A stretch of DNA of 64,000 bases. Origin: a virus. A program made the translations under genes and the position numbers. The stretch spans positions 1-64,000 of the IMG/VR virus record IMGVR_UViG_3300042309_001504. One strand, 5' to 3'. The notes under the pieces were generated by a model, which was not told the DNA's origin, did no database searches, and saw nothing but the letters and a program-made list of their open reading frames with translations. Below are positions 20,401 to 54,843 of this stretch, one piece after another (within the stretch, counting starts at the first letter, position 1; every line of letters starts with the position of its first letter).

Positions 20401-23400
20401 CAAGAAGAAGATTTGTAAATGGTGGAATAGTACAAGATATAGCATCCAATGAGGGATTATCGTTATCAGATGTTATCCTAGAAAAAATTCAATCTCTTGG
20501 AGGCATATCCGGAGTTAAAAAAATAATGGGATTAGGTGCTGGAGACAGAGGTTTAAGTTCTCTTTTGCAAGCCGGTAATATTAAGGCTGGAAAAAATTTA
20601 GAAAAAGCTGCTGATATTGTTAATAAAGCCCTAGAAACCAAACAGAATGATATAGCAAGTTTAACAAAAGTGGCTGTTGCTGGTTTAACCCCAATAGATT
20701 ATAATAAAGATTTTAAATGGGATATTGGTAATAGTCGTACTGTTTTTGCTAGCGCTAGAGGCTTTCCTAATAGATATATGGCTGATGTGTCCAAAATGCA
20801 AGAAGAGTCTTCTCAAGCCGCTAGTAAGTTTGCAGAAAATGTTCAGTATACTAGTATTTTTGGCAACAAACAACCGTTAGTATTTGACTTTGATGAAACA
20901 TTAGTGTCTGGTGCTGATATACTTGATGCTAGTGGGAAACCAGATATTCCACAATATTCAAATAGAGATGCTGTCAAACAAGCATTAGGAAAAGGAAGGT
21001 TAACAAGATTAGGAGCAAAACTTAAAACTCTAATAGATGCTGATCCTAATTTTATTAAACAAACAAGAATATTAACAGCTAGACCTCAAAGTACCGCCGA
21101 TTTATTATCTTCTACTTTAAAAAGTTTTGGTTTGCCATATGATACTTCTCTTATTACCGGGGTAAGTAAAGGATTAGGTACAGATATTCCAGGAGCAAAA
21201 GCAGCCAATTTAGCAGCTACAGAAAAATTAATAGACGATTCATTAGCAAATGTTAGTGCTGCTAAAAAGTTGGGTAAATCTGCGTTTTTATATAGTGAAC
21301 CAAAGGCTGGTGGTGCCGCATTTGATGAATTAATGGGACAGGGAAATATTGAGGGTGCTATTGTTGAAAAAGCCCTCGGTATGTTATTGGGATACCAATT
21401 AGATGTTGATAAATTAGAAAGAAATAGGGCCGTTGATTTTCCAGATGGATTAGGAGCGGCTGCACAATTTTTTGATATTGATCCTAATATTCCAACAGAG
21501 GTTAAACGCACATTAAATAATGATAGTTTTAATAAAGCAAGAGAAGAATTTGGACGATTCTTTACAGAAAATCCAACAAGGTTTGCTGATGGTGGAGTTG
21601 TTCCGGCACTATTAACTCCCGGAGAGGCTGTTATTGGTCCAGAATTAGCACAAAAGATTGGATATGGCAAATTACGACGAATGAATCGTGCGGATAAATA
21701 TGCTAGTGGTGGACAAATTAGTATAGTACCCGGACAAGGAAATAGTGATACCTACGGTCCTGTTCCATTACCTGTTGGTAGTTTTGTTATTAGAAAAAAG
21801 GCCACTCAGGCTTTAGGATTTAATAATGGCGGAAATGTTACCACAAGCAATGCTCAACAATCATATTATGCTTCACAACAATCTGCTAGAGTAACCAGCA
21901 TATTCTCAAGTATTAGTCCAAAGTTAGCAGATACATTACAAAGATTTAATGAGAATCTTGGTGGAACTGTTGCTAGTTTAGGATTAGCAGCCACCACTCT
22001 TAGTAGTCAATTACCAAAATTATATGCTAGTATAGATAGATATGCTGGCACATCATTACTCAGAAGTGCCGAAGCTGCTGGAATAACAGGTGCTTTACAA
22101 CAGGGTGGCGCTAATCTTTTTGCTTCTAAAAATATTGCCGAGCAGGCTGGTTTTGGTAGAACAGGCACAGCGGTTACAGTTTTAGCAAGTACTATTGGTG
22201 GTGCGGTTAGTGGATATTTAAGAAGCAGAGAAGAAAAACAGGCAGAAAATATAAGTAATGCTATTAAAGAAAGTGATAAAAGATTAGAAAATATCTTTAA
22301 TCGCTTAGAATCAGCAATATCATTATCAGCAGAAGAACGTAAAGGATTAAATCAACAATTATTAACAGAACTTGCTGGTCAATATAGTGCATTAGCAACT
22401 CCGTTAGAAAATGTAACAGAAACCTTTTCATCAAAAATATCAAGAGCAGCAGAATCATTGAGTGGGGCAGTATTAACATTTGCTTCTTTAAGAACAGCAA
22501 CTAGACGATCAGATGGCGGTATAGTTTATGCTAGTAAAGGAACACTAGTTAATTATGAACCCAAAGGAACTGATACTATACCCGCTATGCTTAGTAAAGG
22601 AGAATTTGTTGTAAATGCTAGATCTACTCGTAAAAATCTTGGACTTTTAAATGCTATTAATAAAAATAAAGGTGGTATTATTAGTCCAAATTATTTAGCA
22701 ATTGGTGGAGGATTGCGTACTCTTGCCGATTTTACGCCATTTGTTGGCAGCATATTGGATATTCTTGAAGGAGGAGGAGATATATTAGGAGGTAAAAGAG
22801 GGAGTGGATTTGGTAAAATTGGTATGGGTATTGGTGGACTAGGACTAGATATTTTTAGTGGAGGATTAGGCAGTCTTGGTAAGGGTGTTGCTAAAACAGC
22901 TATCAAAACAGGTTTACCAACAGCTATTGGTAATTTAGGAAGATCAGCGATTACTAGAGTTGCTGGTGGTAGAGGAGCAGCAGGTGCGGGAGCAGGTGGT
23001 GGTATGTTAGGAAGATTAGGGTCTTTTGCCGGATCTGTTGCTAATATGACCACGGGAAGTTTAGCTTTAGCCGGTGGTCAGGGATTGTATAGTTATTTGT
23101 CTGGTGGTGGACCAACAGCATCACAAAATACCAGACTGGCCGGATTAGGAGAAATGTTTAAAACATCATTACCAAGAGCAGCAGAAGCACAACTATCTGG
23201 TATGACCACACAACAATTATTAGATCAAAGAAGACAAACACAATCTTTTAAAGAAGGCTCAAAAGAACAAATAGATTTCTTGAGTGGACAAGATAGTATA
23301 GTAGTAAAAACAAGACAACTTGCTGAATTAAATACTGATAGAGCAAAAGCATTAGGATTAGAATCTTCCAAACTAGAAGAATATATAGCAACAGCAAAAA

Positions 23401-26400
23401 CAGCAAAGGGAGTTGATCCTACTAAACTTAGTGAAGACCAAAAGAAAGCATTAGAAGCTGAAAAATTAATTTCAGAAGCTAGAACCAATTTATATGTTGA
23501 GGCTTTTGAGGCCAATAGTGCATTAGCTAGAGAAGAAAAAGATGTTTTAATAAAACAAGCATTAGAAGCACAGAAAAAAACCGAACAAGGTATAGCATTA
23601 TCCAAAGAAGAACAAGCTGCTCTAGACAATGTTATTGGCAAGGGTAAAGAATATGTTGCTAATGTAACTAGAGAAATTAATGAAAAAGATCTTCTAAAAC
23701 GCACAATATCTGCTGTTACAGCATCAACACGCAATTTTACTGATGTTATTAATAATTTATCATCATCGCTAGATAGGGCGTCGTCATCTTTTGAAACATC
23801 ATTGGACAGAATAGATATTGCTGTTGGATCACGGTTAACTGGTCGTGCAGAATTTGGTAAAGTAGACAGAACAAATGAAAACGTTTTCAATAATCTAAGA
23901 GCTTATACTCAAAGAGAAATAGCTGCTGCTAGTGCTGGTATATCTAATATGTTTGGATTTAATAGAATGCAAACTGGAACTAGAACAAATGAAAGAGGAC
24001 AAGTTATACCAACAACACTAGCCGATACTTTAACAGAATCAACCTTAGCCCTTAGAACATTAGAGGTTGAATTACCAAGAATTTTAAGAAGTAGTGCTAA
24101 TGTGGCAGATAATAATCAAAATATACAACCACAAATAAAAGAAGCATTAAGAGCTGGTGGATTGAATGAAACTACCGCGAGAGAAATAGCAACCCAAATT
24201 ACTAATAAATTAAACGAACCCAATAGACAAGGTAATGCTATTTCATTTAGTGATATTGCTAATGATATTCCAGGATTTTTACAAACTATAGATAGTCTTA
24301 AAAAGCCTGTGGAATTTCAAGCCAAAATAACCAAAATAGTTAATGATAATTTAGAAAAATTTAATCAAAAATTACAAAGTGCCTCTGATGCTTTGGTAAG
24401 AGCAGCAGAAATAAGATCAGAATTTGAAAGAACAGGAAATGATTTTGCCACAAGATTATCTCAATCATTAGGATTCAGTACATCTTTGGATCAACAAAAT
24501 GCCGCATTTAATGCTGAAATTAGATCACTATCTACTGTGATCGATGAAAATGGACGAATAATGCAGCAAGGAACAACTGATCCATCTGTGTTAGCACAAA
24601 GAATAGAGCAGGGTAACGCTAATATTGCTGCTGAACAAGAAAGATTCATCAGAACAAATTTTGCAGGAAACGATGCTGAAGTTGCTAGATCCCAATATGC
24701 TATTATGAAACAAACACAAGCGGTTAATCAAAGTCAAAAAGCATTAGAAAAATTAGCAAATGATAGTTCAAGAGCCAGTAATGCTTTGAACAAAATAGAA
24801 GAAAGAAGAGGCACTCTGGAAAGTAGAAGATCAGGAATATTAGATGTTATTGGTAATATGAATAATCCTGATTACCTAATGCAATTAATACAAAGGGCTG
24901 GGGCCGTTAGTAGATTTGAACAAGGTAATGCTTCTATGGAGGATATCAGTCTTATTGCTCAAAATATAGATCAAATATTGACACTAAGAGGAGGCAAAGA
25001 AGGTCAGGACTTTTTAAGAAAATTCGGTCTCTTTATAGAAAGAAATTTTGCAAAAGAAAAACCAGAACTAAGACTAGGTGAGTTTATTAGTACAGCATTT
25101 AAACCAGAAACCGATCCTATTGTGCAACAAATGGCAGCAGCTGCTACTGAATATACAAGAATACAACAAGAGGCTCAACAAAAATTAATTAAACAACAAG
25201 AAGATGCAGCAAAAAAGATAACTGATACATTACCAACAGCAGCAGAAATCTTTAGGACCACTGTTGTTGGAGCAGCCAGAGAGGCTGCTGCTGAATTTAT
25301 GAGGATGGGAAATGCTAATAATGGTCAGCAACAGCAACAAGCACAAGTACAAGCTAATATGGCGAATATTGGAATTAATGGAAATGCTAATATTAATGTT
25401 TTGCCACAACAGCCACAAAAACAGGAAATTCCACAAATTCCACAGATACAACCAGTTAGACCAGTTAAAAAAGCCAAAGGAGGAATGATATATGCTAGTA
25501 ATGGACAATTTATAAACTTTCAACCAAGAGGAACTGATACTGTTCCTGCTATGTTGACTCCGGGCGAATTTGTTGTTAATGCCAAATCAACATCAAAACA
25601 CTTGCCATTGCTAAAAGCTATTAATAATGGAGTTAAAGGATATAGTAGTGGAGGAGTAGTTTATTTAGCAGACGGAGGCAAACCAGACGAACAAAATAAT
25701 GCTGGACGATTCGTAGTTCAAAATGGTATGCCAGTTGATATTAATAATCCTATGAGTATGAATCAACCACTAACTAGAAAGCAAATATTAGAACAAAGAA
25801 GCAAACAATACCAAGATATGCAAAGAGCCAGAAAAGAAGCATACGCAGCTATTGAAGACGATAGAAGGATTAGGAGATATGACATAGATTTAGACAATAG
25901 AAGATTCGAGCGAAGACAAGCAAGAGATTCGGAAATAGTCGATTTGATTGCTAATGGAGATTTAGTTGAAACAGCAAGATCATTAGGTGATAAATTGGGC
26001 TTCGCATATCAATATCGTCGAGCTGATGGTTCTTATTCTCCTGATATGCAAGAAAGTGCAGCCTTAACCGCTGCTAGAAAAATTAAAAGAGAAAGAGAAA
26101 AAGAACAAGAATTATCTCGTAGATATAAACCAGTAACATTAATGGAAGAAGTAATAGCTGAAATAAGTGGAAAACCACCTGAACCTCAACCTCTCACATC
26201 AAATGAAAAATCACAATTTGAATTATTAGATAGAGGACGCAAAATAGCAGCTCAGGCTGGTTGGGATATTAATGAACACAACAAGCTCGTTAGTGAGCAA
26301 ACATGGGGTCATAGGAATCCACTATCTGACTCTGATAGAGCAGCATTTGATGCGTATAAAGATTATGAAATTAAAAAACAAGCTGCTAAAACAGAAGAAG

Positions 26401-29120: not shown

Positions 29121-32100
29121 ATGTCAATAAAAAAATATTATTATAAAGTTCAAGAAACCTCTAACACATTAGGCACTATTGGACTAACTCTTGATGGGGC
29201 CACAACATCATACGAAAGATTTATTGATACTATAGGAACCAACAAAGATTTTACATATAGTGTTATTAATACCTCTAATACTTTAGAGTGGGAATATGGA
29301 GTTGGTCACTTAGAAAATGTTCTTGGAAATTATATTTTAAGCAGAGATCAAATATTATCGTCATCTGCCGGAGTATCATTAGTCTCATTTAGTAGTGGTG
29401 TGAAAAATGTTGATTTAATTCCCACAGACCATAATATTACTAATTTAAGTATAGTCTCCGGCAATACGGATGTTGACTATATATCATCAACATATGCTAT
29501 AGATGCGTCTAATGGAAATTTATCTATTAATTTACCACTAATAGCAGACGGTTTTGATAATGCGTCAAATTCTCAGTCTGTAACTATTGGCTTTGTTCTT
29601 AACACTACCAGTGGAAATGTTACAGAACAAACTAATGCTGTTACTATTGTTCCCAGCGGCGCCGATACTATTGCTGGCACAGGACAATATAATATTTCTA
29701 TTAAAAATGATTATATACAATTTGTTGCTGATCCATCTTCCAATAATTGGATTTTACTAGATCCCATCCAAGACAGTATTTATCCATCAGGTGGAAATGG
29801 GGCCATTCAATTTGCAGAAAATCAAGGATTCAGTTATAGCACAGGATTATACTGGGATATTAGTAATAATTCATTGGTCGTTGGTTCAAGTGGTATAACA
29901 AATTCCACAATAGTTTTATCATCATTAACCTCATCAATATTCAATAATAAGTCTGGAGATATAGATTTTGTTATTAATGGTAGTGGAAATCAATTATTTT
30001 TAGCCGATGCATCAACAAATAGAATTGGTATAAAAACTAATAGTCCAACTCAAACATTAGATATTGTTGTTAGTGGTAACGATGGCGTTTGTGTTAGAAC
30101 AACCAGTTCATCAAGTGTTCCACAATATATTATAAAAAATAATTATACAGGATTATCTCAAGGAGATGATATTGGTTCATTAGTATTTAATGCTCTAGAT
30201 AATGCATCAAATTCCACAGACTATGCTAAAATATTAGTAGAATTTATTTCTAAAGTTAATGGAGCAGAAGAAGGAGTTCTTAAATTACAGGTTAATAAAG
30301 ACGGATCACTACAAACAGTTGCAGAATATGCTTATAGTGGTATAGTATTGGGTCATGATAATACTAATGTTAATGGTATAATTATTGGTGAACAAAATAT
30401 TAATTATGGTGATAATATTATTATTGGTTATTATAGTTCTGGTAATGCCACTAATAGTATCATTATTGGAGATAACAATTTAATTTCTTCTGGATCATTT
30501 GGGGGTATAATTGGACAAGATCATAGTTTATCAGGAGTTAATTCTTGGATACTGGGAGGATCAGGACTATCTGCAACAGGAAATAATCTTACATATTTAG
30601 CCTCTGATAGTAATAACTATATTAGTATACAATCTTCTGGCAGATTAAATTATAATGGACTAAATAGTTCCGGATTAATTTTAGCTATTACTAACGAAGA
30701 AGTATTAACTTCAGGTAATACCGATAGTATACATTTAAATTTTTATAATACTGCTGGACAACAAATTACTGGATTAAAAGTTAGTAATAAAATTACTATT
30801 CCAACCTCTGGAAATGAAACATCAGTTTTACAAATTTATGGTCAACAATCTGGTAGTAGTGTTAAAATATTAGAGATTGCTGATACTAATATTACTCTTG
30901 GAAATAATTCTTTAAGTAGTGGTAATATTATCATCGGTAATGATAATACAGTAAACGATAGCGGCAATATTATTCTTGGTAATAATGTTGTTATCAGCGG
31001 ATTAAATACCACAATATTAGGATCGTCTAATGTTGTAAATAGTGGTATTGATAATATAACTATCGTTGGAGAATCCAATACAGTAGATACTTCTGGCAAT
31101 AATAATATTACAGTAATTGGTCTTAGCAATAATGTTGATGAAGATTATTCTACAACAATAGGAATGTCAAATACTAATAGCGGATTATATAGTACCGCTA
31201 TCGGTTTTGATAATGGTGTTGATGGTTCTTATATATCTGTAATCGGAGAGCAAAATTTAGTTACAACTAATGGATCAGTAGTTTTTGGAAATAATAATAC
31301 TATTGATAATAGTGGAATTAATGCTCAGGGTTTTGCTATCGGAGCCGGTAATGATATAGATGCTTCTGGTACTGGCATAGCAATAGGATCAAACAATATT
31401 ATTTCTGGTTTTGGTGGTTCGATATATGGATTAAATAACTCTAGTTCCGGCTTAAACAATACTATCATAGGTAACAATAATACATTAAACGGATCAGGAT
31501 TATTTGTAATAGGAAACAATATTACATATTCTGGCTCTGATGGTATTTATATATCTTCCACAGGATCCAGTATAGAATTAGTATCTAATCAAGTCAAATT
31601 ATCTGGCGATATTTATATCAATAATACTGGAGTTGGTGAGTATGTTCAAGATATTATTGGTAATATAATTACTGGCACAGGTAGTGTTTCAGTATCATAT
31701 AGCGATGCCGGAAATCAGATAATAGTATCGGGACAAACCATATATAATGAAACAATTAGTATTGTGGGTAATAGCGGTTTAACAGGAAGCGGGTCATTTA
31801 CACTAAATCAAAGTTCTGGAGTATCGATTACGCTTAGTCATAATGATACATCAACTGTTAGTAATAGTGGCGTTACCAATACTAGTGGAAATGTTATACA
31901 ATCATTAAGTTTATCGTTTGATACATACGGCCACACAACTGGTTTATCAATATCATCAACAAATTTGGACTCTCGTTATGCACTAACATCACATACTCAC
32001 ACATCGTCTAATATCACAGATTTTAACAGTTCTGTCAGTGGATTGTTACCAGTTAAAGATGTTAATGGTACTGGTTATGTTGTTGTCACAGACAGTCTTG

Positions 32101-32567
32101 GAATCTACACAGTAAGCGTAACAGGGCTACAACCATCAGGATCTTATGCTGCTAGTGTTCATACTCATATATCCAGCGATATAACTAATTTCAACAGTGC
32201 GGTTAGTGGATTATTACCATCAACTCCTTATATTTTTGCTTCTGGTGGTGGCACATTAACTAGTGGAACAGCAACATTTTCGATTACTAATAATTTAGTT
32301 AGTGGAACAATTATACCACAATCTTTATCGTTTAAATTTGGACAATCAGTATACGATCTTTCTGTTAATGTCACAGGATTAGTACAACCAATTAGTATAA
32401 CTGGAGTATCTGGAGTAGCACAGGTATATTATAATAATAATTTAATTCAGGGTAGTGTAATAACGAGTGGTTCTCCATCATCATTTGATGTGTCGGTAAC
32501 TTATACCGGTATGGGATCAGGGGTAACAACCTCGATTGATTTATATGTGGTTGGTATAAAAGTATAG
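29121..32567 (+). CDS. Tail fibre/spike protein with beta-roll-like (IG..N) repeats
   Basis: VQETS.TLGT...EWEYGVG N-terminus, many IIGxxN repeats, HTH..SNITDFNSSVSGLL repeats. Confidence 0.65.
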   Translation: MSIKKYYYKVQETSNTLGTIGLTLDGATTSYERFIDTIGTNKDFTYSVINTSNTLEWEYGVGHLENVLGNYILSRDQILSSSAGVSLVSFSSGVKNVDLIPTDHNITNLSIVSGNTDVDYISSTYAIDASNGNLSINLPLIADGFDNASNSQSVTIGFVLNTTSGNVTEQTNAVTIVPSGADTIAGTGQYNISIKNDYIQFVADPSSNNWILLDPIQDSIYPSGGNGAIQFAENQGFSYSTGLYWDISNNSLVVGSSGITNSTIVLSSLTSSIFNNKSGDIDFVINGSGNQLFLADASTNRIGIKTNSPTQTLDIVVSGNDGVCVRTTSSSSVPQYIIKNNYTGLSQGDDIGSLVFNALDNASNSTDYAKILVEFISKVNGAEEGVLKLQVNKDGSLQTVAEYAYSGIVLGHDNTNVNGIIIGEQNINYGDNIIIGYYSSGNATNSIIIGDNNLISSGSFGGIIGQDHSLSGVNSWILGGSGLSATGNNLTYLASDSNNYISIQSSGRLNYNGLNSSGLILAITNEEVLTSGNTDSIHLNFYNTAGQQITGLKVSNKITIPTSGNETSVLQIYGQQSGSSVKILEIADTNITLGNNSLSSGNIIIGNDNTVNDSGNIILGNNVVISGLNTTILGSSNVVNSGIDNITIVGESNTVDTSGNNNITVIGLSNNVDEDYSTTIGMSNTNSGLYSTAIGFDNGVDGSYISVIGEQNLVTTNGSVVFGNNNTIDNSGINAQGFAIGAGNDIDASGTGIAIGSNNIISGFGGSIYGLNNSSSGLNNTIIGNNNTLNGSGLFVIGNNITYSGSDGIYISSTGSSIELVSNQVKLSGDIYINNTGVGEYVQDIIGNIITGTGSVSVSYSDAGNQIIVSGQTIYNETISIVGNSGLTGSGSFTLNQSSGVSITLSHNDTSTVSNSGVTNTSGNVIQSLSLSFDTYGHTTGLSISSTNLDSRYALTSHTHTSSNITDFNSSVSGLLPVKDVNGTGYVVVTDSLGIYTVSVTGLQPSGSYAASVHTHISSDITNFNSAVSGLLPSTPYIFASGGGTLTSGTATFSITNNLVSGTIIPQSLSFKFGQSVYDLSVNVTGLVQPISITGVSGVAQVYYNNNLIQGSVITSGSPSSFDVSVTYTGMGSGVTTSIDLYVVGIKV

Positions 32568-37758: not shown

Positions 37759-40700
37759 ATGCCATGTCAAAATGTTTCCGCCACGATGGCACTATATGAT
37801 GCTATAACACAAGTCAATATCTTTGGTAATACTCCGATAGAAATTACTTCATTTACTTCTAATATAGGATTTAATAATCAAGAAAGTTCTGTTTCAATAG
37901 ATCTTGTCATTAATCAGTGTACAGTTGGAGGAATAGCGGATCTAAATACTGGATATGCGGTAAATTTTATATGCAATGGTTTTAGTTTTGGAGGCATAGT
38001 TAAAAGAATAGAATACTCCGAGAGTGATGCTGGTATCAAATATAAGATAGAGATTGGGGACACAAGAAAGTTATTAGACGGAGTACAACTACTATTAAGT
38101 GGATATTATTGTAATTTACAAGGTGGTAATTTTATCAATGTATTAAATTTAATAGAAGGAAGATCAGCTGGATCAGCATGTAGTGGACAACTATCTCCAG
38201 GATCATTACCATCAATCGGCAATTGCGCCTTTTATGGTTTAAGTGGAGCGGGAACTGGTCGAGGTATTTCGTATTTACAAGCTATAACGGCTATAGCAAA
38301 TAGTAATAGTCCAGTATTAACAACTGCTGGTACTAGTTTGTATATGAATTTAAGCCCTATAGTAGGTTTGGCAAGTACTATTCCATATGCTACCACAGAT
38401 GGCTCTAGTATGAGTTTGTTAGAAATGATTACAGCCATTTGTGATGAATCAGGATACGACTTTATAACAACGTTAGTTGGTAATATTATCAATTTTATAC
38501 CAATAAACAGAAGAACTAATCCTCAGTTTGGTCAAATTTCATCACTAATTAATTTAGCAAGATCTGGTGGAACTCTTATATCTGCTAGTCAGGGTTTGGA
38601 AGAAACCTATGAACCAACTAGTAAAATAGTAATAGGAGATAAGGTTCAATATTTAAAAACAGGGTCATCTTATTGGTCACCATCTTTTACCACAATGTTA
38701 TTGGGATACACTAACGATGGTTATCCTATTAGGGCCACACAACAGCAGCTCAATAGTGGAATAAATATAAATACAACCACACTAGCATCATCTTTTGCAT
38801 CAGTAGGCTATAATATAGCAAATTCTTTATCTATCAAAGAAAGTGAAATTTTATCTTTAGGAAGTTTATCATTCTGGAAAGCATATTCGTTAACTAATAC
38901 GGATAGTATTGGAGCATATATTGGTCGAACTTTGTTGGGAGAACAATGGGAAACGCTAACCACCCAAGCTATTAACTCATTACTAACAATAGCTGGACAA
39001 AATAAATTAGGAGAATACTCAGCTTTACAACAAGCAATAAATAGTGTGGTGAAATCAGCAACTATAGCAGCACTATTTGATGATGTTGCTTATAGATGGC
39101 TAAAATCTTTTGTTGATGAATATTATGGTAAGCAATGGTTAGTAAATATTAAATCTAGAGTATGTTATAATGCTCCATATGGTCTTTATGGCCCATCAAT
39201 ATCCGAAGGTGGATCAATATTAGTATCAGATGCTCCTTCTGATGGCGGATGGCCAGATAGCAGTAATATATTAGGATTGAATTATGGAACAGCAGATACT
39301 AGTTTATTTCAGTTAGATGATGGTCGCATAGGATCATTTATAGCTTTTAGAAGTAATATTATTGCTAATAAAACATGGAAAAATAACTCAATAGTTTATT
39401 ATCTTAATACTGGTTTATTAAGTGGTGAGTATATATCTAAAAATGGTTTTATATATATGCCATGTTCTATAGATAGTAAAATGTATAACGGTATTGATAA
39501 TAATGTTGAACTTTTAGTAAAAACACCATTTATTCCACTAAGTATTAGGCCCACAACATCAACTACTATTGCTAATGGATTGTATGCTTTAAGTGTTTTA
39601 GCAGGCGCTAACTTAACAAATATTCCACCAGATGCAAAAAGCGGTATTAATCCTACAATTTTTAATAATCTAAAAGATAATCCTGCGGCTGCTTCTTTTG
39701 ATGGTATTTGTTTACCAATGAAAAGTAATATGTATGTTTATGGTCCATATATGGGATCTAGTGGTCAGGTCGGAGGCACAATAGTTCAGGAGATGAATGA
39801 CTTAAATCCTTGGACATATGGCGGTGTTCAAAATATGAATTCTATTGGACAAGCATTAGCAAATAATGGATTTAAAGGACAAAATAAATCTGAAAGCGGA
39901 TCAATAACATTAGCAGAAGCACCAGCGTATTCTTTGGGGCCGGTAGCATCTTTAGGAGGTTTGGTTTTAGGAAGTGTTAGTACAAATTTTGGAGAGAGTG
40001 GAGTTACAACAACATATAATTTTCAAACGTTTACTCCTAAATTCGGTAATTATGCACAAGCATTGGCTAACAATGTAAAAAGAGGAGTTGAAAATCGTAA
40101 ACAAATATTCAAATATATCAAAGAATTTAATCAAAAAACAATTACCAGTATCAATAACGCTAGAACATCTGTTGTAAAAAGTACTTGGAATCTAAACAAT
40201 CCGATTAACAATACTCCAATAAATCAATCATCTAGTGCTTCACAAAATAGTCCTAATATACTATTATTTAGTAATTATATTTTAAGAGGAGACATAGACG
40301 TTCAAGCTAGTTCTGGTGGTGGAGGTGGTGGTTTTGGTTCTTTTGCTATAAATCCATTTTCGTGTGAACAAATTTGTGATGGAGTACAACCAATAGGTCT
40401 TTTGCCGGGAAATAGTGGTAGTAATAATAATAAGAGAATATATTCGTTATCTGGTTTTGAAAAAACAGATGCTATAGATCAATTTTTAGACGCTAATAGA
40501 TATTCTGCATATGCTATATCATCCACAGATGCAATTTTTGCACCAGTATCTTTACGAGGATCTGGTTCGTTACCAAGATTAATTCATACTAACGTTAATC
40601 AAAATATACCGTTAAGCAAATCAAGAGGCTGTATGCCACCAATATGGTTGGCTGGAAATATTATTGGGAATTTGCCCATCACACAATTATATCTCAATCC

Positions 40701-41757
40701 CATGCTATCATATGCTAATTTATCAGAGTGGGATGGCAGACGGGGATCTAGTAGTGTTGGTTTTACAATTAGTCATATTACATATGGTGATGATCCATCC
40801 ACACTATTCCAACTTGATGATACTGATAGACAATACCAATCAGACTTTAGATTTTCTGCATTAAAGGGACCGTTGGTATTACAAAGCTGGGGATATGATA
40901 CTAATGGTAAACCCATACCAAACAAAGCTGATAGTCCAGCAAATTGTGAAAATGGTAATTTTAATAAAACGGGTTTATATGATCAGTTTATGGGTAATTG
41001 GTTAGGTAATCCTAAAACATGGCCAGTTGGTCCTATTGATTTAAGATGGGATAGAGATCGAGGAGTTTGGGTCGCACCACCACCAGAAAAAATTGTTGTG
41101 GCACAATTATTGAGTGATTTAAATCCTGGTGGATCAGCACAGGCAGTATTATTAAATCCTGGCAGTGGAACAGGTTTATTTTTTAATCAATATGATGTTT
41201 ATGGTCCTAACGGAGAACATATAACAGGTAATATTAGTGATGCTCAAATAGTTGTTGGAGATTTTTTGGGTCGTAAATTATGTAAAGGTACAAGAATTTA
41301 TGCTTATCATTATGATGATGGTAAATATATTGCTTTAGAGGCTAGTATTGTTAATGAAGAAACTTGTGAATGTGATTGTGAAACACCAACGCCATCAACT
41401 ACAACACCCACCACAACCGAAACAACGCCTCCTACAACACCCCCAACAACACCCCCAACAACACCCCCAACAACACCCCCAACAACACCCCCAACAACAC
41501 CCCCAACTACGCCACCAACACCAACTACACCTCCTACAACGCCTCCAACTCCAACAACAACATATACGATTACTACAACGCCAACTACACCAACAACGCC
41601 ACCCACTACTCCGCCTACCACACCTCCTACAACGCCACCATGCGATGTTTGCGATTTGGTCGATTGTTTAAGTCAACTTGGCGGAGACGGAGTACTCGGT
41701 ATTTCTGGAGGATGTTTGAAAATTTATCCGTTGACTACATGTCCATCTGAAACTTAA
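37759..41757 (+). CDS. Large tail tip / hub protein with Thr-Pro-rich C-terminal linker
   Basis: 1332 aa, last structural gene; hub-like N-terminus (FSFGGIV, SLLEMITAICDESGYDF); GPIDLRWDRDRGVW; TTPP repeats. Confidence 0.55.
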   Translation: MPCQNVSATMALYDAITQVNIFGNTPIEITSFTSNIGFNNQESSVSIDLVINQCTVGGIADLNTGYAVNFICNGFSFGGIVKRIEYSESDAGIKYKIEIGDTRKLLDGVQLLLSGYYCNLQGGNFINVLNLIEGRSAGSACSGQLSPGSLPSIGNCAFYGLSGAGTGRGISYLQAITAIANSNSPVLTTAGTSLYMNLSPIVGLASTIPYATTDGSSMSLLEMITAICDESGYDFITTLVGNIINFIPINRRTNPQFGQISSLINLARSGGTLISASQGLEETYEPTSKIVIGDKVQYLKTGSSYWSPSFTTMLLGYTNDGYPIRATQQQLNSGININTTTLASSFASVGYNIANSLSIKESEILSLGSLSFWKAYSLTNTDSIGAYIGRTLLGEQWETLTTQAINSLLTIAGQNKLGEYSALQQAINSVVKSATIAALFDDVAYRWLKSFVDEYYGKQWLVNIKSRVCYNAPYGLYGPSISEGGSILVSDAPSDGGWPDSSNILGLNYGTADTSLFQLDDGRIGSFIAFRSNIIANKTWKNNSIVYYLNTGLLSGEYISKNGFIYMPCSIDSKMYNGIDNNVELLVKTPFIPLSIRPTTSTTIANGLYALSVLAGANLTNIPPDAKSGINPTIFNNLKDNPAAASFDGICLPMKSNMYVYGPYMGSSGQVGGTIVQEMNDLNPWTYGGVQNMNSIGQALANNGFKGQNKSESGSITLAEAPAYSLGPVASLGGLVLGSVSTNFGESGVTTTYNFQTFTPKFGNYAQALANNVKRGVENRKQIFKYIKEFNQKTITSINNARTSVVKSTWNLNNPINNTPINQSSSASQNSPNILLFSNYILRGDIDVQASSGGGGGGFGSFAINPFSCEQICDGVQPIGLLPGNSGSNNNKRIYSLSGFEKTDAIDQFLDANRYSAYAISSTDAIFAPVSLRGSGSLPRLIHTNVNQNIPLSKSRGCMPPIWLAGNIIGNLPITQLYLNPMLSYANLSEWDGRRGSSSVGFTISHITYGDDPSTLFQLDDTDRQYQSDFRFSALKGPLVLQSWGYDTNGKPIPNKADSPANCENGNFNKTGLYDQFMGNWLGNPKTWPVGPIDLRWDRDRGVWVAPPPEKIVVAQLLSDLNPGGSAQAVLLNPGSGTGLFFNQYDVYGPNGEHITGNISDAQIVVGDFLGRKLCKGTRIYAYHYDDGKYIALEASIVNEETCECDCETPTPSTTTPTTTETTPPTTPPTTPPTTPPTTPPTTPPTTPPTTPPTPTTPPTTPPTPTTTYTITTTPTTPTTPPTTPPTTPPTTPPCDVCDLVDCLSQLGGDGVLGISGGCLKIYPLTTCPSET
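41434..41505 (+). repeat. Perfect 12-bp tandem repeat (ACAACACCCCCA x6) encoding TTPP
   Basis: Read directly; degenerate copies extend over about 41385-41640. Confidence 0.95.
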
Positions 41758-49393: not shown

Positions 49394-49421
49394 ATTGTAC
49401 CGAAAACCTGGGTTTTGTCAA
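49394..49421 (-). promoter_or_regulatory. Sigma70-type promoter upstream of ssb
   Basis: TTGACA-N16-TACAAT on the - strand; the -35 box overlaps the dnaE-C stop codon; AAGGAG SD follows. Confidence 0.6.
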
Positions 49422-51016
49422 GCTTTCGGTAGATACAACTTATCAACTATCAATCCATCTTTTGTTTTACTTTTGTTTCCCGACAGTATAACAACATTAC
49501 CAACAAACAAAGCATTTTTATATTTAGCATATTGGTCTGGAAAAAAGATTATTGAATCCAAGCAACCAGTATTATCAGAAGCGGTAATAAAAGACATTTC
49601 TGCTCCCGGTTTAGCTCCACTCTTTGTTTTTACAATATTTATATTTTCTATTTCACATGCTAATATCGCATTATTTACTGTAGGACTTTTAAAATCTCTA
49701 CAACTACAATTAGTCATATTGATATCATACATATCTATTTTTGAACAAGTAACTGAATATCCCAATAATGAATATTCTGTATCAGATAACCACTCTATAG
49801 TATCATCTAAACTATAAGGCGGTCTATTAATAGTCTGCATAAGATTTTGTATAATATCTTTACGTTTTACTGATAGTCTAGGCATTTTCATTAGTAGTAC
49901 AAACATATCATATAGAGAACCACAAATATTATTTGATATAAATTGTAATTCTTTGTCTGTTAATTCTGATAGTAATGTATATTCAAAAATTAATTTATTT
50001 CTAGATTTACCAAAATGATCAAATGCACCAACAGAGATTAATGCTTTGGATGCTGTGCTATTAATTTTTAGTAGAATTTTAATTAATATATCATACCACG
50101 ATGAGGTATTTAAATCCATATTATTTTGAGCTACTAAATTAGTCATTTTATCAAATACAGAATCTCCAACACCCTTTATGTCTGTTAAGCCAAAATAAAT
50201 AGATTTGTTTTTTAATATAAAATATTTATTCAGGAGTCTAAAATCAGGAGGTTTAACAGTTACATTCATCTCATTAGCATTTTGTATCAACTCTTTAATT
50301 TCTGCTTGAGGATCAATTTTATCTTTAGCAAATCTAAGATAGGAATTAAAAAATATTCTTGGAAAATGTGCCTTACAATATGCAGATAAATATGCATTAA
50401 TAGCATAACTTACAGCATGACTTTTATTAAAAGAATATCTTTGGCTTTTTTCAATCCAGTTAAAAATTTCTTCTGCTTGATTCTGACTAATTATTTTGGT
50501 TTCTAGACAACCATTTATAAATTTAGATTTAAGCTTAGACATTTCTTCTGGTTTTTTCTTACCAATAGCTTTTCTTAACATATCTGCTTCTTGCAAATCA
50601 AAACCAGCTAATTCTTTAGCTATTTCCATAGCCTGTTCTTGATAAACCATCTCTCCGTATGTATTAGATAATATCGGTTCAAGAGCATCGTGAAAATAAT
50701 CTACTGATTCTTCACCATTCTTTTTATCTATATAGTGATTGCTAACACTTTTCCCATCTCTAATTGCTTCTAAACAACCGGGCCTCATGATGCTAATTAG
50801 TGCTGCTAATTGCTCTATATTTGTTGGTTTGAGTTTTTTTGCCATTGTTTTACCAAGTCTGCTTTCTAATTGAAAACATCCTTTAGTATTACCATCAGAA
50901 ATTAAATTCCATGTTTTTGAACACGATAAATTTAATTTGCTAATATCTGGATTAAACTCAACACCATCATCGGTTCTATCGAACTGACAACCACAAGAAT
51001 ATTTTATATTTTTCAT
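49418..51016 (-). CDS. dnaE: DNA polymerase III alpha, C-terminal half (fingers, HhH, OB fold)
   Basis: GCFQLES, RPGCL, VYQEQ, ADMLRKAIGKK, YSFNKSHAVSYA, FGLTDIKGVG. Confidence 0.92.
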   Translation of the reverse strand: MKNIKYSCGCQFDRTDDGVEFNPDISKLNLSCSKTWNLISDGNTKGCFQLESRLGKTMAKKLKPTNIEQLAALISIMRPGCLEAIRDGKSVSNHYIDKKNGEESVDYFHDALEPILSNTYGEMVYQEQAMEIAKELAGFDLQEADMLRKAIGKKKPEEMSKLKSKFINGCLETKIISQNQAEEIFNWIEKSQRYSFNKSHAVSYAINAYLSAYCKAHFPRIFFNSYLRFAKDKIDPQAEIKELIQNANEMNVTVKPPDFRLLNKYFILKNKSIYFGLTDIKGVGDSVFDKMTNLVAQNNMDLNTSSWYDILIKILLKINSTASKALISVGAFDHFGKSRNKLIFEYTLLSELTDKELQFISNNICGSLYDMFVLLMKMPRLSVKRKDIIQNLMQTINRPPYSLDDTIEWLSDTEYSLLGYSVTCSKIDMYDINMTNCSCRDFKSPTVNNAILACEIENINIVKTKSGAKPGAEMSFITASDNTGCLDSIIFFPDQYAKYKNALFVGNVVILSGNKSKTKDGLIVDKLYLPKA

Positions 51017-51696
51017 TTAAATGAATTCTCAAAATTAACTTTTGGTGATAAATTACGATGTAATTTCAAAAAACGTATCAAAATATTAGCACAGTCCTTC
51101 ACATCCTTTAACGCATCATGTGCTCCAGATTTATCTATTCCTAGATAATCTCTAATATTATCTAATGAATAACTCTTAATTTTATCTATATTTTCAAACC
51201 AATAAAAAATTAAATTCATAATATCTAAAACGTCTCTTGGATAAAATATATTACTATAATTTTCTTTATTTGTATTTTTATATTTTTGGCTTAATCTATT
51301 AACTATAACAAGATCAAACCTATGTATATTGTATCCGGCAGCAATTGGTGCAGAAAATTCATTTTTCTTTGTTGATCTACAATGATACTTATCCAAGTAA
51401 TTGGTAAATTGTTTCCATGATTGTTCTTGCTTTGGATAAGTTTTCCATAGCTCTAGAATATCTGATTGAGAGCATCCTTTGACTTTAGCATGAAAATCTA
51501 GTATATCATTATCATATTGATGATCTATATTTTTTTCTAAAAGTTCTGGTCTTAGATTAATATTAAATTCTGAATCTTTTATAATTTCTAATTTAATTGG
51601 ATCAATCATAACACACGCTAATTGTACTGGACTACATTCGTGTGGATTTTTACCATCGGTCTCAAAATCAAATACGCATATTTTTTTATTAGCCAT
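51013..51696 (-). CDS. DEDDh 3'-5' exonuclease (epsilon/DnaQ-like)
   Basis: VFDFETDG, AGYNIHRFD, HDALKD. Confidence 0.85.
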   Translation of the reverse strand: MANKKICVFDFETDGKNPHECSPVQLACVMIDPIKLEIIKDSEFNINLRPELLEKNIDHQYDNDILDFHAKVKGCSQSDILELWKTYPKQEQSWKQFTNYLDKYHCRSTKKNEFSAPIAAGYNIHRFDLVIVNRLSQKYKNTNKENYSNIFYPRDVLDIMNLIFYWFENIDKIKSYSLDNIRDYLGIDKSGAHDALKDVKDCANILIRFLKLHRNLSPKVNFENSFK

Positions 51697-51875
51697 TAAT
51701 TAATAACCTCTACTTGTTCCATAGGTTTGATCACAACATGTTCATTATTACTAAGCCTTATTGCATTATGCTTAACTTTGCAACAAGTTATTCTCTCTTC
51801 TTTGATTTTTTTATATTCTTCATTTGTTGCCAGTACTCTAAACTTCACATCTAATGGAATTTCATAAAATTTCAT
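51696..51875 (-). CDS. Small hypothetical protein, 59 aa (missing from the ORF track)
   Basis: GGAG SD; ATGA overlap with dnaE-N and TAATG overlap with the exonuclease: MKFYEIPLDVKFRVLATNEEYKKIKEERITCCKVKHNAIRLSNNEHVVIKPMEQVEVIN*. Confidence 0.7.
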   Translation of the reverse strand: MKFYEIPLDVKFRVLATNEEYKKIKEERITCCKVKHNAIRLSNNEHVVIKPMEQVEVIN

Positions 51876-53772
51876 AAACTATCTCCTATCTTTAGCGTGG
51901 AAGAAATATCCATAATTTTATCTAACATTGCTACACCCAATACATCAAACTTAATTATACCAATACTTTCTAAATCTTGCATTTCCATACCAGCAATCGG
52001 TTGTTTATTTTTAGTGTCATAAACCATAGGACAAATATTTTCTAGATCATTAGACGCTATAACAACTCCGGCAGCATGTTTTGATTGATTAGATTTAGTG
52101 CCTTCTAATCTAATAGCCTGTTCAAATCTTTTGGCAAGTGGTCCTTCTAAGGAATCATTTTCTCCTATATAACACCATTCTTTTAGATCTTTACTATTAT
52201 TTTCTAATGCCCACTGTATTATTGATGCTTCTCCATATTCTTCTTTCATTTCTTGAAGTTCATCAGCAATTTTAGCCTCGTCCGGTATAAATTTAGTAAT
52301 CTTATTCATCTCATCAAAAGATACATTTCCATATGCTCTCAAAACATCTTTTAATGCACCACGACCTTTCATCGTATTAAAAGTAATCATTTGTGATACT
52401 TTTTTGTGACCATATTTATTTTTTATATAATTTATAATATCTTCCCTTTTATTAATTGGCACATCGATATCGATATCTGGCATACTAATTCTATCCTTGG
52501 TATTTCTACCAGCATTATAAAATCTATCAAACATAAGATTATATTTAATAGGATCTATAGATGTTATTCCTAATAAATAAGAAACTAAACATCCAGCAGC
52601 ACTACCTCTTCCCGGACCCGGCAACCAGTTGTTATCTTTTACATAGTTAACAATATCGTTAACAATTAGAAAATAACTTGATAACCCGGCGCCTTGTAAA
52701 ACACCCAATTCATATTTTATTCTATCTGCATAAATATTTTCTTGCTCTTTAGTTATATTGCCAGATAGTTTTTGTTTCCATCCGTTTCTACATAATTGTC
52801 TAACATATTCATCATCCGAATCATATGATTTTGGATAATCAAATGGTGGAAGCATAGGCTTACTCATAATATCATACTCTTCACACATTGATGATGCGAA
52901 TAATGTGTTCTGGATCTCTTCTTCTGTATGAAGACTTTTCATTTCTTCAAAAGTAGGAATATGAAAATTATCAGATGTAAAAAAGCAACTCATACCAACA
53001 TCATCATCATTATCCAATTTTCTGTTAATTTCAGATAGTGTTGTTTTTAAATTATTACATAATAAAATTCTCTGATCAACAGCATCCTCTTTTCTACAAT
53101 AATGAGCATCAGGAGTACAGATTACTTTTATTCCAAATTTTTTACCAAGATCCCTAATATAAGAAGTTAGTGGTACTTGAATAGGTAAATTTTCTTGGTC
53201 TATTAGTTGAGATTCTAAAAATATATTTTCTCTACCAAAAACATCTATCAATTTATTTAGATGATTATTACTATTCTTATCACTATCTGAAGATATGTGA
53301 TCATTGTCAAGTATAGTATTAGCTAAAGATGATCCTAGATGACCAGTGATACAAAGCATATTTTTACTAATGATTGATCCTAAAGTATCTAGATCTAATC
53401 TTGGTTTCTTATAAAAATTATCTCCATAATTAGAAATAGAAATAACTTTTATCAAATCTTTCCATCCATTAAGATTTTTAGCTAGTATTAGCAAATGACT
53501 TAATTTACCATTTTCTTTGGTTTTTATAGATGCGTCTTGATCACAAACATATATTTCACAGCCTAAGATTGGTTTAATTCCTTTTTTATTCATTTCAGAA
53601 TAAAATTGTATAGCTCCAGAAATAGAACCATGATCTGTTAATGCGCAAGAAGTCGCACCTATTTCTAGACACCTATTAGCGATTTGATGTGGTTTAGACA
53701 ATCCATCCAATAACGAGTAATGAGTCGTTAGGAATGGACATGCAAAGGCACATAAGTCTTTGTCATATCCAT
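51872..53772 (-). CDS. dnaE: DNA polymerase III alpha, N-terminal half (PHP + palm), with a frame break near 53730
   Basis: Main ORF: TDHG, GCE, TPDAHY, GPGRGSAAG, MPDIDID, KHAAG, KFDVLG. The natural N-terminus MDMTKTYVPLHVHS (SD AAGGAG, ATG 53772) is in a different frame and ends in TAA at 53730-53728. Confidence 0.88.
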
Positions 53773-53799
53773 CTATTTGTCTCCTTTCTTTTCTTAAAA

Positions 53800-54843
53800 T
53801 TATTCAACGCTGCCCGGTGCTTTGTATGCCGATACAGTATAACCGGGAAAAGTGTATTCGTCAACAACAACATCCATTCCTTTAACATCTATATCGTGTT
53901 TAATCTGTTCACATTTGGTCATTATATTATTTTTAGCAACTGTTTGGTTGTCTCTGTATTCAGTAATGGTTGGTATATGAGTATTTTCAAAAGACGTTTT
54001 ACCAAAATGGCATAACTTATTGCACATCCATGTTTTATTGAGTCTAGGTTTAGTGGTTTTTTTAATAATTTCATATTTATCTTTTAGCATATTTTCTGTG
54101 CTTTTTAGGTCAGAATTATTAAAACATATAGAGTATGGACCACCATCATTAATAAAATAGATTGTTACAATAACATTATCTATATGAGGATATAATTGCT
54201 TTAATGCATAATGATAAATTTTAAGCTGAGGATCTTTTTCTAGCTTTTCCTGTGTCTTTTCTTGTCCTGTGGCCCAATCTAATCTACGACCAGTTTTCCA
54301 ATCTACAATTTCATATGTATTATCATCTATTTTAGTAATTAGATCTATCGTTCCCTTAATTGCTAAATTACCACTAATAGTTTCATCTTTTAATTTGAAA
54401 GAGTATTTAGACCATGGTTTTTTAATTTCTATATCAAACTTTTGTTCTGGACACACTATGATTCTATTTCTTGGATCAAACATTCCTCCATTATGAGATA
54501 TGGCCTTATATACCCAGCTATGACAATCTTTATAATCTTTAATTTCCCATGTATGATGGGAAAATTGTTTAGAATAATAATTATATACTTTTTCTATAAT
54601 AGTATTTAAATTATATTTATTAACATTAATATTACCAAGTATATCATCTTCAACAGTTTTTTCATCATTTTGAACTCCTTGTTGTATAACGGCTAGAATT
54701 TCTAAAACTTTATGAACTATCGTTCCTTTATCCGCCTTTTTATTAGACGGACCCCTCCATCCTAAAACATATTCGAAAAAATATTGCTGTTCGCACATAT
54801 TGTGCGTATTATAACTAGATGATCTAAAGTAAGTAATAATTAT
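53800..54843 (-). CDS. PD-(D/E)xK nuclease, Cas4/RecB/AddB-like
   Basis: RSSS...C, GTIVHKVLE, GTIDLI...IVDWKTG, QLKIY, C-terminal Cys cluster. Start probably ATA 54843; first ATG is 54798. Confidence 0.8.
   Translation of the reverse strand: MIITYFRSSSYNTHNMCEQQYFFEYVLGWRGPSNKKADKGTIVHKVLEILAVIQQGVQNDEKTVEDDILGNINVNKYNLNTIIEKVYNYYSKQFSHHTWEIKDYKDCHSWVYKAISHNGGMFDPRNRIIVCPEQKFDIEIKKPWSKYSFKLKDETISGNLAIKGTIDLITKIDDNTYEIVDWKTGRRLDWATGQEKTQEKLEKDPQLKIYHYALKQLYPHIDNVIVTIYFINDGGPYSICFNNSDLKSTENMLKDKYEIIKKTTKPRLNKTWMCNKLCHFGKTSFENTHIPTITEYRDNQTVAKNNIMTKCEQIKHDIDVKGMDVVVDEYTFPGYTVSAYKAPGSVE

Follow-up and report, generated by a model that had tools for sequence, protein, structure and literature searches.

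A candidate programmed short translational bypass in the dnaE gene of a freshwater phage

The interrupted dnaE gene of the window

The DNA analysed here, called the window, comprises 64,000 nucleotides (nt), positions 1 to 64,000 of the IMG/VR virus record IMGVR_UViG_3300042309_001504. Its minus strand carries dnaE, a gene for a DnaE-type DNA polymerase III alpha subunit that is interrupted within the PHP metal-binding motif by 8 nt beginning with a stop codon. Translation from ATG 53772 yields 14 codons (MDMTKTYVPLHVHS) and ends at TAA 53730-53728. The DnaE frame restarts at CAT 53722, 8 nt past the last sense codon, a Ser codon, and extends to a stop codon at 51874-51872. This break had been noticed in a preliminary description of the window, and its coordinates and frames proved exact on re-reading. 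The site consists of the following elements, among them two open reading frames (ORFs):

53781..53786, minus strand: Shine-Dalgarno motif AAGGAG, at 8-nt spacing to ATG 53772, within the 27-nt spacer (53773-53799) that follows the upstream nuclease gene
53731..53772, minus strand: ORF1, 14 codons (MDMTKTYVPLHVHS); holds the PHP H-x-H pair and ends with the proposed take-off codon, Ser TCC 53733-53731
53734..53772, minus strand: hairpin 1; outer stem of 9 bp between ATGGATATG (53772-53764) and CATGTCCAT (53742-53734), start codon included
53728..53730, minus strand: stop codon TAA, placed in the A site when TCC is in the P site, and identical with the first 3 bases of the hairpin 2 5' arm
53723..53730, minus strand: insert TAACGACT, 8 nt, composed of TAACG (53730-53726), which would be skipped, and the proposed landing triplet ACT (53725-53723)
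53706..53733, minus strand: hairpin 2; TAACGA (53730-53725) pairs with TCGTTA (53716-53711, Ser-Leu codons) and TCC with GGA (53708-53706)
51872..53722, minus strand: ORF2, the DnaE N-terminal part (rest of PHP, palm/NTPase), from CAT 53722 to the stop codon, which is included

ORF2 matches the Pfam families PHP (E = 3e-32) and DNA_pol3_alpha, the Pol III alpha NTPase domain (E = 1.5e-75). Deletion of TAACGACT would yield HVHS-HYSLLDG. This restoration had been proposed before, and the resulting motif spacing is indeed that of 21 uninterrupted relatives. The same spacing is found in DnaE of Thermus aquaticus, whose structure has been solved (2hpi), with a gapless alignment across the motif. 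The IMG/VR record is 122 kb long with an estimated completeness of 88%, and its sole match to DNA_pol3_alpha is this dnaE. PolA and PolB families were also sought in the 122-kb record and yielded no match. With no other DNA polymerase gene found in the record, dnaE is a gene that matters.

The eight bases are true sequence and not an assembly error. Over the region, three IMG/VR contigs that stem from other samples are 100% identical. Logan contigs from four runs of four studies (2016-2023) each span positions 53500-53950 unbroken, with 0 gaps and 0-2 substitutions; one of these runs, X4, is possibly the source sample. An assembly error, one of the outcomes that would have disposed of the finding, is ruled out by these four runs without an indel. 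In total, 20 public runs contain the stretch. All are lake or freshwater metagenomes and are listed as DNA, a kind that was guessed; no RNA run is among them. A blastn search of the region against cultured phages gave no match. Using the DnaE N-terminal part in tblastn, 1430 records were obtained, all below 60% identity with a best value of 34%, so that no cultured relative is at hand for experiments. A search of Rfam over 53400-54000 with E values up to 1 returned no family match.

Gap and hairpins in related phages

Related loci were collected from IMG/VR phage contigs in several ways. A protein-based search blind to the N-terminus gave 25 loci: three copies of the window, 21 continuous loci reading M-K-x-Y-I-P-L-H-V-H-S-H-Y-S-L-L-D-G and one broken locus, L018. 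The latter is 66% identical; its insert, at the same junction, has 11 nt and another sequence but likewise has the stop codon first. A DNA pattern for Y-x-P-L-H-V-H-S-stop hit 65 contigs, and 65 of 65 hits lie at dnaE 5' ends with the LLDG codons next. These 65 contigs rule out that the insert is private to the window, another objection considered in the preliminary description. A second pattern (start-codon arm, spacer, H-V-H arm) found mostly unrelated palindromes among the matches listed, together with nine new dnaE cassettes (L093, L116, L124, L128, L129, L132, L137, L139 and L163). As these were chosen by complementarity, they are circular as evidence for hairpin 1; they supply 5 of the 40 rows of the stem alignment, whereas the other 35 are free of this circularity. 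After deduplication, 52 distinct cassettes were available, all broken at the same dnaE codon junction.

The frequency of the break was estimated with a sample selected by downstream protein motifs only. Among the best 80 of at least 530 relatives, 16 are interrupted, 63 continuous and one is unclassifiable, so that in this sample about one fifth of the phage group (16/79 loci) carries the break. The peptide Y-x-P-L-H-V-H-S is preserved in all interrupted relatives, including the 16 from this sample, which is blind to the N-terminus. In a tree of DnaE, interrupted and continuous forms are interleaved, with at least four changes between them. The whole 5' module, comprising spacer, Shine-Dalgarno motif, extra codons and gap, switches as a unit. 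Interrupted forms have their own Shine-Dalgarno motif, an AAGGAG-like sequence at equal distance from the start in the other cassettes, and three additional N-terminal codons that constitute the 5' arm of hairpin 1. In uninterrupted forms, the start ATG overlaps or abuts the stop codon of the upstream nuclease gene.

The gap varies in length and frame. Measured from the stop codon to the landing triplet, the inserts are 6 nt (one cassette), 7 nt (two), 8 nt (three), 9 nt (seven), 10 nt (20), 11 nt (18) and 12 nt (one) long. Their lengths modulo 3 fall into classes 0, 1 and 2 in 9, 22 and 21 of the 52 cassettes, respectively. A maximum-likelihood tree built from 60 DnaE N-terminal parts requires at least 15 switches between frame classes. 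Even well-supported sister pairs differ in frame: L046 (11 nt) from L053 (12 nt) and L036 (7 nt) from L078 (6 nt). By contrast, the flanks are preserved on either side, HVHS before the gap and [H/M][Y/F]SLLDG after it. A gap whose length and frame are free while the flanking codons are fixed behaves, as this comparison suggests, like untranslated sequence. Because the frame class varies even between sisters, a single frame-blind mechanism fits these data, and three frame-specific mechanisms do not.

The stop codon comes first in 52 of 52 cassettes (TAA 27, TAG 24, TGA 1). A reassigned stop codon was considered and ruled out, as the insert is out of frame in 43 of the 52. The triplet before the resume codon is TCN in 31 cassettes, GCY in 11, ACT in nine and TGA in one, with a middle C in 51 of 52. 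All nine cassettes with ACT have TCC as take-off codon, as in the window. It had been pointed out before that the window lacks a matched landing codon (TCC versus ACT). This is correct, yet 31 of the 52 relatives do have a matched Ser codon. The two shortest inserts, in L078 and L036, are plain stop hops between identical Ser codons; L078 reads Ser codon-TAA-same Ser codon. The resume codon is CAT or CAC in 35 cassettes and ATG in 16. The most divergent cassette is L137 (minus strand), with take-off codon TCA, stop codon TGA, a 7-nt insert ending in TGA and GAA as resume codon. Its +1 path is blocked by a stop codon, its landing triplet is the only one without a middle C and a remnant of an HNH gene (81 amino acids, aa) lies upstream.

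Hairpin 1 is formed by the beginning of the coding sequence. In its outer stem, the start codon and the next two codons are complementary to the H-V-H codons. An inner stem connects CAAAG (53762-53758) with CTTTG (53747-53743), i.e. codons 4-6 with the Pro-Leu codons. In the minimum-free-energy fold, the 3' end of the hairpin is one base short of the take-off codon. Across 34 distinct rows, the outer stem is paired in 98.7% of its cells and shows compensatory GC/AU changes. At one pair, 23 rows have GC, 10 have AU and one has GU; none of 500 shuffles matches the observed pairing. The 42 nt of hairpin 1 fold with a mean of -18.1 kcal/mol (z = -5.1) in 44 interrupted forms, compared to -2.3 kcal/mol (z = +0.5) for the same 42 nt in 15 uninterrupted forms (p = 9e-9 for the difference). 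The stem energies range from -16 to -22 kcal/mol. Thus, hairpin 1 is confined to interrupted forms.

Hairpin 2 contains the stop codon and the gap. Its 8-nt loop, CTCATTAC (53724-53717), is made up of bases 2 and 3 of the landing triplet, CAT as the resume codon and TAC for Tyr. The 96-nt minimum-free-energy fold of the window has -27.2 kcal/mol (z = -3.4), and 2 of 200 shuffles fold equally well. Of the helices predicted in the preliminary description, TAACGA/TCGTTA with its 8-nt loop and TCC/GGA are present in this fold. The proposed extension TCCA/TGGA is absent, because those bases belong to the stronger upstream hairpin 1. In 41 of 44 distinct cassettes the architecture of hairpin 2 is the minimum-free-energy fold, and a register-free count found a helix of at least 5 pairs beginning within the stop codon in 35 of 38. 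The 5' arm tracks the synonymous Ser-Leu codons (TAGTGA/TCACTA, TAGAGA/TCTCTA, TAGCGA/TCGCTA, AAGTGA/TCACTT). Among the cassettes with a Leu codon ending in A, TAA is always combined with TTA and TAG with CTA (10 of 10). In a swap test, inserts were exchanged between cassettes with different Ser-Leu codons: real cassettes have a mean of -7.67 kcal/mol versus -4.43 kcal/mol for the chimeras (Mann-Whitney p = 2e-14). With RNAalifold, a MAFFT alignment of 37 whole cassettes yielded nothing beyond the outer stem of hairpin 1: since the gap varies and pairing occurs in two registers, hairpin 2 is misaligned. Hairpin 2 was therefore assessed by per-sequence folds, the swap test and the register-free helix count.

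A predicted ribosome hop and competing explanations

These features point to a programmed short translational bypass, i.e. a ribosome hop, which is the probable reading of the interruption in the only DNA polymerase gene found in this phage. Initiation would occur at ATG 53772, and 14 codons would be translated. The ribosome would then stall with peptidyl-tRNA-Ser on TCC 53733-53731 and TAA in the A site. The tRNA would release its codon, the mRNA would slide by 8 nt and the tRNA would re-pair imperfectly with ACT 53725-53723. Decoding would restart at CAT 53722 and give a product with the normal PHP motif HVHS-HYSLLDG. Refolding behind the ribosome, hairpin 1 would draw the mRNA forward over a distance similar to its outer stem of 9 bp. 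Its 3' arm consists of the 9 nt directly 5' of the take-off codon and can therefore pair only if the mRNA is drawn out by about 9 nt, a distance near the modes of the hop distance, 10 and 11 nt. The stem of hairpin 2 would conceal the stop codon and the gap, and its loop would present the landing and resume codons; through TCC:GGA pairing, this hairpin would also compete for the take-off codon. A hop, a -1 shift and a micro-intron had all been offered as explanations before. The relatives favour the hop; a fixed frameshift fits badly with offsets of 6-12 nt in all frames. Similarly, when conservation was checked as the preliminary description had proposed, the stop codon was kept in 52 of 52 cassettes and the hairpin was found to co-vary, but the offset was not kept. 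Since it varies over all three frames, it fits a skipped gap and not one fixed frameshift.

A more specific form of this model is offered tentatively and is clearly less certain than the hop itself. According to it, about 85 nt would act as a purely RNA-encoded hop module, in which hairpin 1 pulls by about 9 nt and hairpin 2, not the identity of codon and anticodon, sets the landing site. A landing set by hairpin 2 would explain why 21 of the 52 variants, including the window, tolerate a landing mismatch at one position (the first position in 20). A module encoded in RNA would also explain why a nascent chain of 14 residues suffices.

Several points weigh against a hop. The support comes from sequence comparison throughout. 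In the window, the landing triplet ACT can pair with tRNA-Ser at positions 2 and 3 only, the gap TAACG has no Shine-Dalgarno-like element, and a -1 path giving HVHS-LTT-HYS is open, which makes a frameshift conceivable for this genome taken by itself; 21 of the 52 cassettes have no TCN landing triplet. Unlike in gene 60 of phage T4, hairpin 2 encloses the landing and resume codons and has to melt if decoding is to continue. The nascent chain of 14 residues is too short for a tunnel signal of the gene 60 type. Hairpin 1 holds the start codon and could serve initiation control instead of the hop, and the conservation of the ORF1 peptide is inseparable from DnaE function or from the constraint imposed by hairpin 1. 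Both pattern scans required the H-V-H codons, so that decayed forms could have escaped them; in the downstream-motif sample (best 80 of at least 530 relatives) there was no decayed cassette. Finally, an endonuclease gene of the kind that accompanies the cassette in relatives (see below) is not apparent in the window genome: tblastn with five HNH ORFs over the 122-kb record gave no match, and the spacer has just 27 nt. A remnant of an HNH 3' end in this spacer was considered and rejected, as the likeness is weak, too short and dominated by the Shine-Dalgarno motif.

Among the alternatives to a hop, the one that survives best is unlikely nonetheless: a lineage-specific rescue, in which the insert length would decide between a -1 shift, a +1 shift and readthrough. 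In the window, a -1 shift at CAT TCC TAA would produce HVHS-LTT-HYSLLDG. This path is free of stop codons, and the simple path is open in 48 of the 52 cassettes. In addition, frameshifting is known to be stimulated by a downstream hairpin and by a stop codon in the A site, and both are present. However, there is no slippery X XXY YYZ sequence, and CAT TCC TAA has no repeat of identical bases. A slip by -1 would move tRNA-Ser from UCC to UUC, where the middle position would be a mismatch or a wobble. In the +1 class, 4 of the 22 cassettes have a stop codon that closes the +1 path. With 15 frame-class changes on the tree, such a rescue would demand repeated switching of the mechanism between sisters, and it would add two to four variable residues in a motif with the same constant spacing in these phages and in Thermus.

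Slightly less probable again is that ORF1 is a separate leader peptide of 14 residues, that a DnaE without H-x-H arises by initiation or re-initiation downstream and that the hairpins exert translational control. The start would be TTG 53710 in the window and an ATG at the resume position in other lineages. A start codon within the stem of hairpin 1 does resemble initiation control, TTG 53710 is the first listed start codon of the long frame, and in the 16 cassettes with ATG as resume codon it often follows a G-rich gap. But ATG is common at this position in uninterrupted forms, too (HVHS-MYS, HCHS-MFS), where it is an ordinary variant of the motif; re-initiation at this codon as a special feature was rejected for this reason. 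The 35 cassettes with CAT or CAC at the resume position lack such a start. TTG 53710 has no Shine-Dalgarno motif upstream, and the corresponding TTG of LLDG is replaced by CTG or CTT in L027, L040, L080 and L036. A start of the protein at TTG 53710, which had been named as a simple way out, is therefore unlikely. Moreover, Y-x-P-L-H-V-H-S and x-Y-S-L are intact in every cassette, and a leader combined with a truncated protein needs neither.

Less probable still is an excision of the 8 nt from the mRNA, either as a micro-intron or by hairpin-guided editing with an endonuclease and a ligase, after which the frame would be continuous. Two conserved hairpins do border the gap, and the 3' junction lies within a hairpin loop. 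The 5' junction, however, lies at the base between two helices and not in a loop, and the region has no Rfam match. Furthermore, bacteria and phages are not known to have self-splicing or enzyme-cut introns as small as 6-12 nt, although no search for one was made. An invariably leading stop codon and a Ser-like triplet before the resume codon are features read by ribosomes and not needed for splicing.

The least probable explanation, a dead gene left by an assembly error, a private template-switch mutation or the decaying scar of a homing endonuclease, could appeal to an insert that is complementary to nearby coding sequence, as in quasi-palindrome mutation, and to a genome without an HNH gene, but it conflicts with identical bases in four independent runs, with 52 distinct cassettes that show compensatory changes, with an intact downstream gene of about 600 codons and with the role of dnaE as the sole polymerase gene found in the 122-kb record.

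Gene neighbourhood, homing endonucleases and known bypass systems

The two hairpins and the gap lie at the 5' end of a larger DnaE module, 49418-53772 on the minus strand, which consists of two dnaE genes with two other ORFs in between. The neighbours of ORF1 and ORF2 are:

53800..54798, minus strand: PD-(D/E)XK nuclease gene (PF12705; PHROG exonuclease), upstream of dnaE
51696-51875, minus strand: 59-aa ORF, downstream of ORF2
51013-51696, minus strand: DnaQ-like 3'-5' exonuclease gene, between the two DnaE parts
49418-51016, minus strand: DnaE C-terminal part (finger, HhH and OB domains by Pfam)

The N-terminal part matches PF02811 and PF07733, the C-terminal part PF17657, PF14579 and PF01336, the last one below the curated cut-off. 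Hence, the domain set of a DnaE-type Pol III alpha subunit (PHP, palm/NTPase, finger, HhH, OB) is complete across the two genes. This gene order is kept in 24 of 25 related loci, with or without a gap, and the 25th locus ends too early. The split of DnaE into two genes is a family trait unconnected to the gap. Some relatives deviate in other ways. In the uninterrupted L023 (2971-5365), the DnaE N-terminal part itself is broken into two ORFs of 472 and 287 aa. Extra residues are present where it breaks, and the end of the first ORF gives a match to a PHROG family 'DNA helicase'; this may be a split-intein or 'fractured gene' arrangement. In L008 (5739-6754) and L009, two additional ORFs of 146 and 191 aa without recognisable function separate the exonuclease gene from the DnaE C-terminal part; other relatives lack ORFs at this place. 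Elsewhere in the window, the plus strand contains an ORF of 3894 aa at 17421-29105 and others of 1148-1449 aa at 6696-11045, 29121-32567 and 37759-41757.

In the phage record, aragorn found a tRNA-Leu(CAA) and a transfer-messenger RNA (tmRNA) only, and neither a tRNA-Ser nor a suppressor tRNA. The tmRNA (tag GTNQLALAA) and the tRNA-Leu are located outside the window, at G000:C1:112443-112793 and 104033-104117, respectively. It is curious that a phage tmRNA is encoded in the same record as a gene proposed to stall ribosomes on a stop codon.

In seven interrupted loci (L029, L039, L054, L057, L068, L129 and L163), an ORF of about 240 aa is located directly upstream of the cassette and terminates inside its Shine-Dalgarno/start region. 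It matches PHROG families of endonucleases, HNH endonucleases and endonuclease VII, with E values down to 7e-23. Pfam found only weak helix-turn-helix matches below cut-offs in the ORFs upstream of dnaE in the relatives. By tblastn, 11 interrupted loci have a full HNH homologue. Seven of these adjoin dnaE; the other four, which are 28-32% identical, are placed beyond the upstream nuclease gene. Remnants of HNH genes are present in seven interrupted loci, in five of which they adjoin the cassette, and 53 interrupted loci have none. None of the 21 uninterrupted loci has an HNH homologue.

In the HNH-bearing loci, the Shine-Dalgarno motif of dnaE sits within the last codons of the HNH gene. The HNH ORF of L054 (1307-2038) crosses this motif and is open up to the dnaE start, the end of the examined stretch, as are those of L029, L039, L057, L129 and L163. 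Translation of the HNH ORF would open the 5' arm of hairpin 1, and in this way expression of nuclease and polymerase may be coupled. When the spacer of the window was compared without gaps over 16 nt, 5-12 of 16 positions were identical to the HNH 3' ends of six HNH-bearing loci. Its mean identity is 8.1/16 to other interrupted forms and 4.1/16 to uninterrupted forms.

Judging from this distribution, the cassette most likely came together with a gene for an HNH homing endonuclease, was copied into naive alleles and later lost the nuclease. The gap would shield the allele from the HNH nuclease. The genome of the window would be an orphan cassette from which the nuclease gene has gone. In T4, too, the endonuclease can be lost while the bypass is retained (10.1101/2022.08.31.505936). 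The link to an HNH gene in relatives, which provides an alternative reason for the gap, and the sequestering of the start codon by hairpin 1 go beyond the preliminary description.

To our knowledge, very few natural systems of programmed bypassing have been described: T4 gene 60 with its homologues, the yeast mitochondrial byp elements and the candidate in the terminase gene of phage Hau3. A full-text literature search, from which supplementary files were excluded, found no description of such a bypass in dnaE. Likewise, the text of the preprint on gene 60 homologues contains nothing on it under polymerase, dnaE or PHP; its supplement could list bypass cassettes outside topoisomerase genes.

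In stop hopping and at byp elements, a stop codon or an unassigned codon in the A site leads the peptidyl-tRNA to leave its codon and to pair again downstream, at a distance of a few to tens of bases. Stop hopping has no dedicated structure and is an error of low efficiency. The byp elements are mitochondrial, 27-55 nt long and numerous in each genome. The shortest relatives, L078 and L036, resemble classical stop hops. In contrast to both, the phages described here have one site per genome with two dedicated, co-varying hairpins. Low-level stop hopping in Escherichia coli and the byp elements of Magnusiomyces capitatus mitochondria are both named in the passages of a study on phage Hau3 (PMC10732093).

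This study reports candidate bypass triggered by UUA at inserts of 10 nt (and 7 nt) in the large terminase gene of Streptomyces phage Hau3 and of two prophages (Antonov et al., 2023; PMC10732093). The inserts were found in 3 of 100 terminase genes analysed, and immunoblots and mass spectrometry in E. coli gave partial support (PMC10732093). As far as these passages go, the Hau3 case shares with dnaE non-coding blocks of about 10 nt in a conserved phage gene, a slow A-site codon in first place and local RNA structure that draws the landing codon near. Its authors also argue that a frameshift would insert residues in a conserved junction. The trigger differs: it is a rare sense codon tied to host physiology in Hau3 but a stop codon in dnaE. 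Furthermore, 3 of 100 genes contrast with dozens of co-varying variants here, which are known from sequence alone. A homing endonuclease is not mentioned in those passages.

The closest parallels are offered by T4 gene 60, here taken from the available passages of two preprints. In gene 60, the stop codon directly follows the take-off codon, and an A-site stem-loop includes it (10.1101/2022.08.31.505936, 10.1101/2024.12.09.627546). A 5' stem-loop is thought to push the ribosome as the exiting mRNA folds, and the landing codon is read by the same tRNA (10.1101/2022.08.31.505936, 10.1101/2024.12.09.627546). Pairing of the exiting mRNA has been proposed as the forward driver (Wills et al., 10.1101/2024.12.09.627546). 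In the gene 60/MobA element, about 50 nt interrupt the Toprim motif of a topoisomerase large-subunit gene, and the N- and C-terminal extensions are conserved (Manning and Atkins, 10.1101/2022.08.31.505936).

As judged from these passages, dnaE resembles gene 60 in several respects. A stop codon directly follows the take-off codon and lies within a stem-loop. A hairpin is located just 5' of the take-off codon, although in dnaE its role as a driver is predicted from its position and pairing. A landing codon for the same tRNA is present in 31 of 52 cassettes, to which the window with its ACT does not belong. The gap falls into a conserved metal-binding motif of an essential replication enzyme. 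Finally, a free-standing HNH endonuclease gene is linked to the site and can be lost while the bypass stays. The parts themselves differ. The affected gene is dnaE instead of a topoisomerase gene, the gap has 6-12 nt (8 in the window) instead of 50, and the take-off tRNA is Ser (TCN) instead of Gly (GGA). Take-off at codon 14 leaves no room for a long nascent-peptide signal, and the landing and resume codons are situated in the loop of the take-off hairpin, not far downstream. The gap of the window has no Shine-Dalgarno-like element, and many landing triplets mismatch at the first position. No sequence likeness to gene 60 was seen, and the HNH ORFs of the relatives were assigned by PHROG families. 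Nor does the site show the defining features of the gene 60/MobA element: the gene is dnaE, the gap has 8 nt and a match in Rfam is lacking.

If the hop is real, it has consequences beyond this locus. Gene callers will start dnaE too late, at TTG 53710, or label it a pseudogene in about one fifth of this group of lake phages (16/79 loci). A hop module encoded in RNA could be transplanted to other genes. More than 50 natural variants would constitute a mutational series in length, frame, landing triplet and stem, in which two questions about gene 60, whether pairing of the exiting mRNA is the driver and how strictly a cognate landing codon is required, could be tested directly. A second phage family of hop sites would have been found, unrelated in sequence to gene 60, located in a replicative polymerase gene and with a gap a fifth as long. 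The HNH link would also parallel the logic of T4, where a selfish nuclease guards its own allele with an insert that only the ribosome ignores. The comparison suggests that what is new in dnaE is a translational bypass linked, like that of gene 60, to a homing endonuclease, but built of unrelated and much smaller parts.

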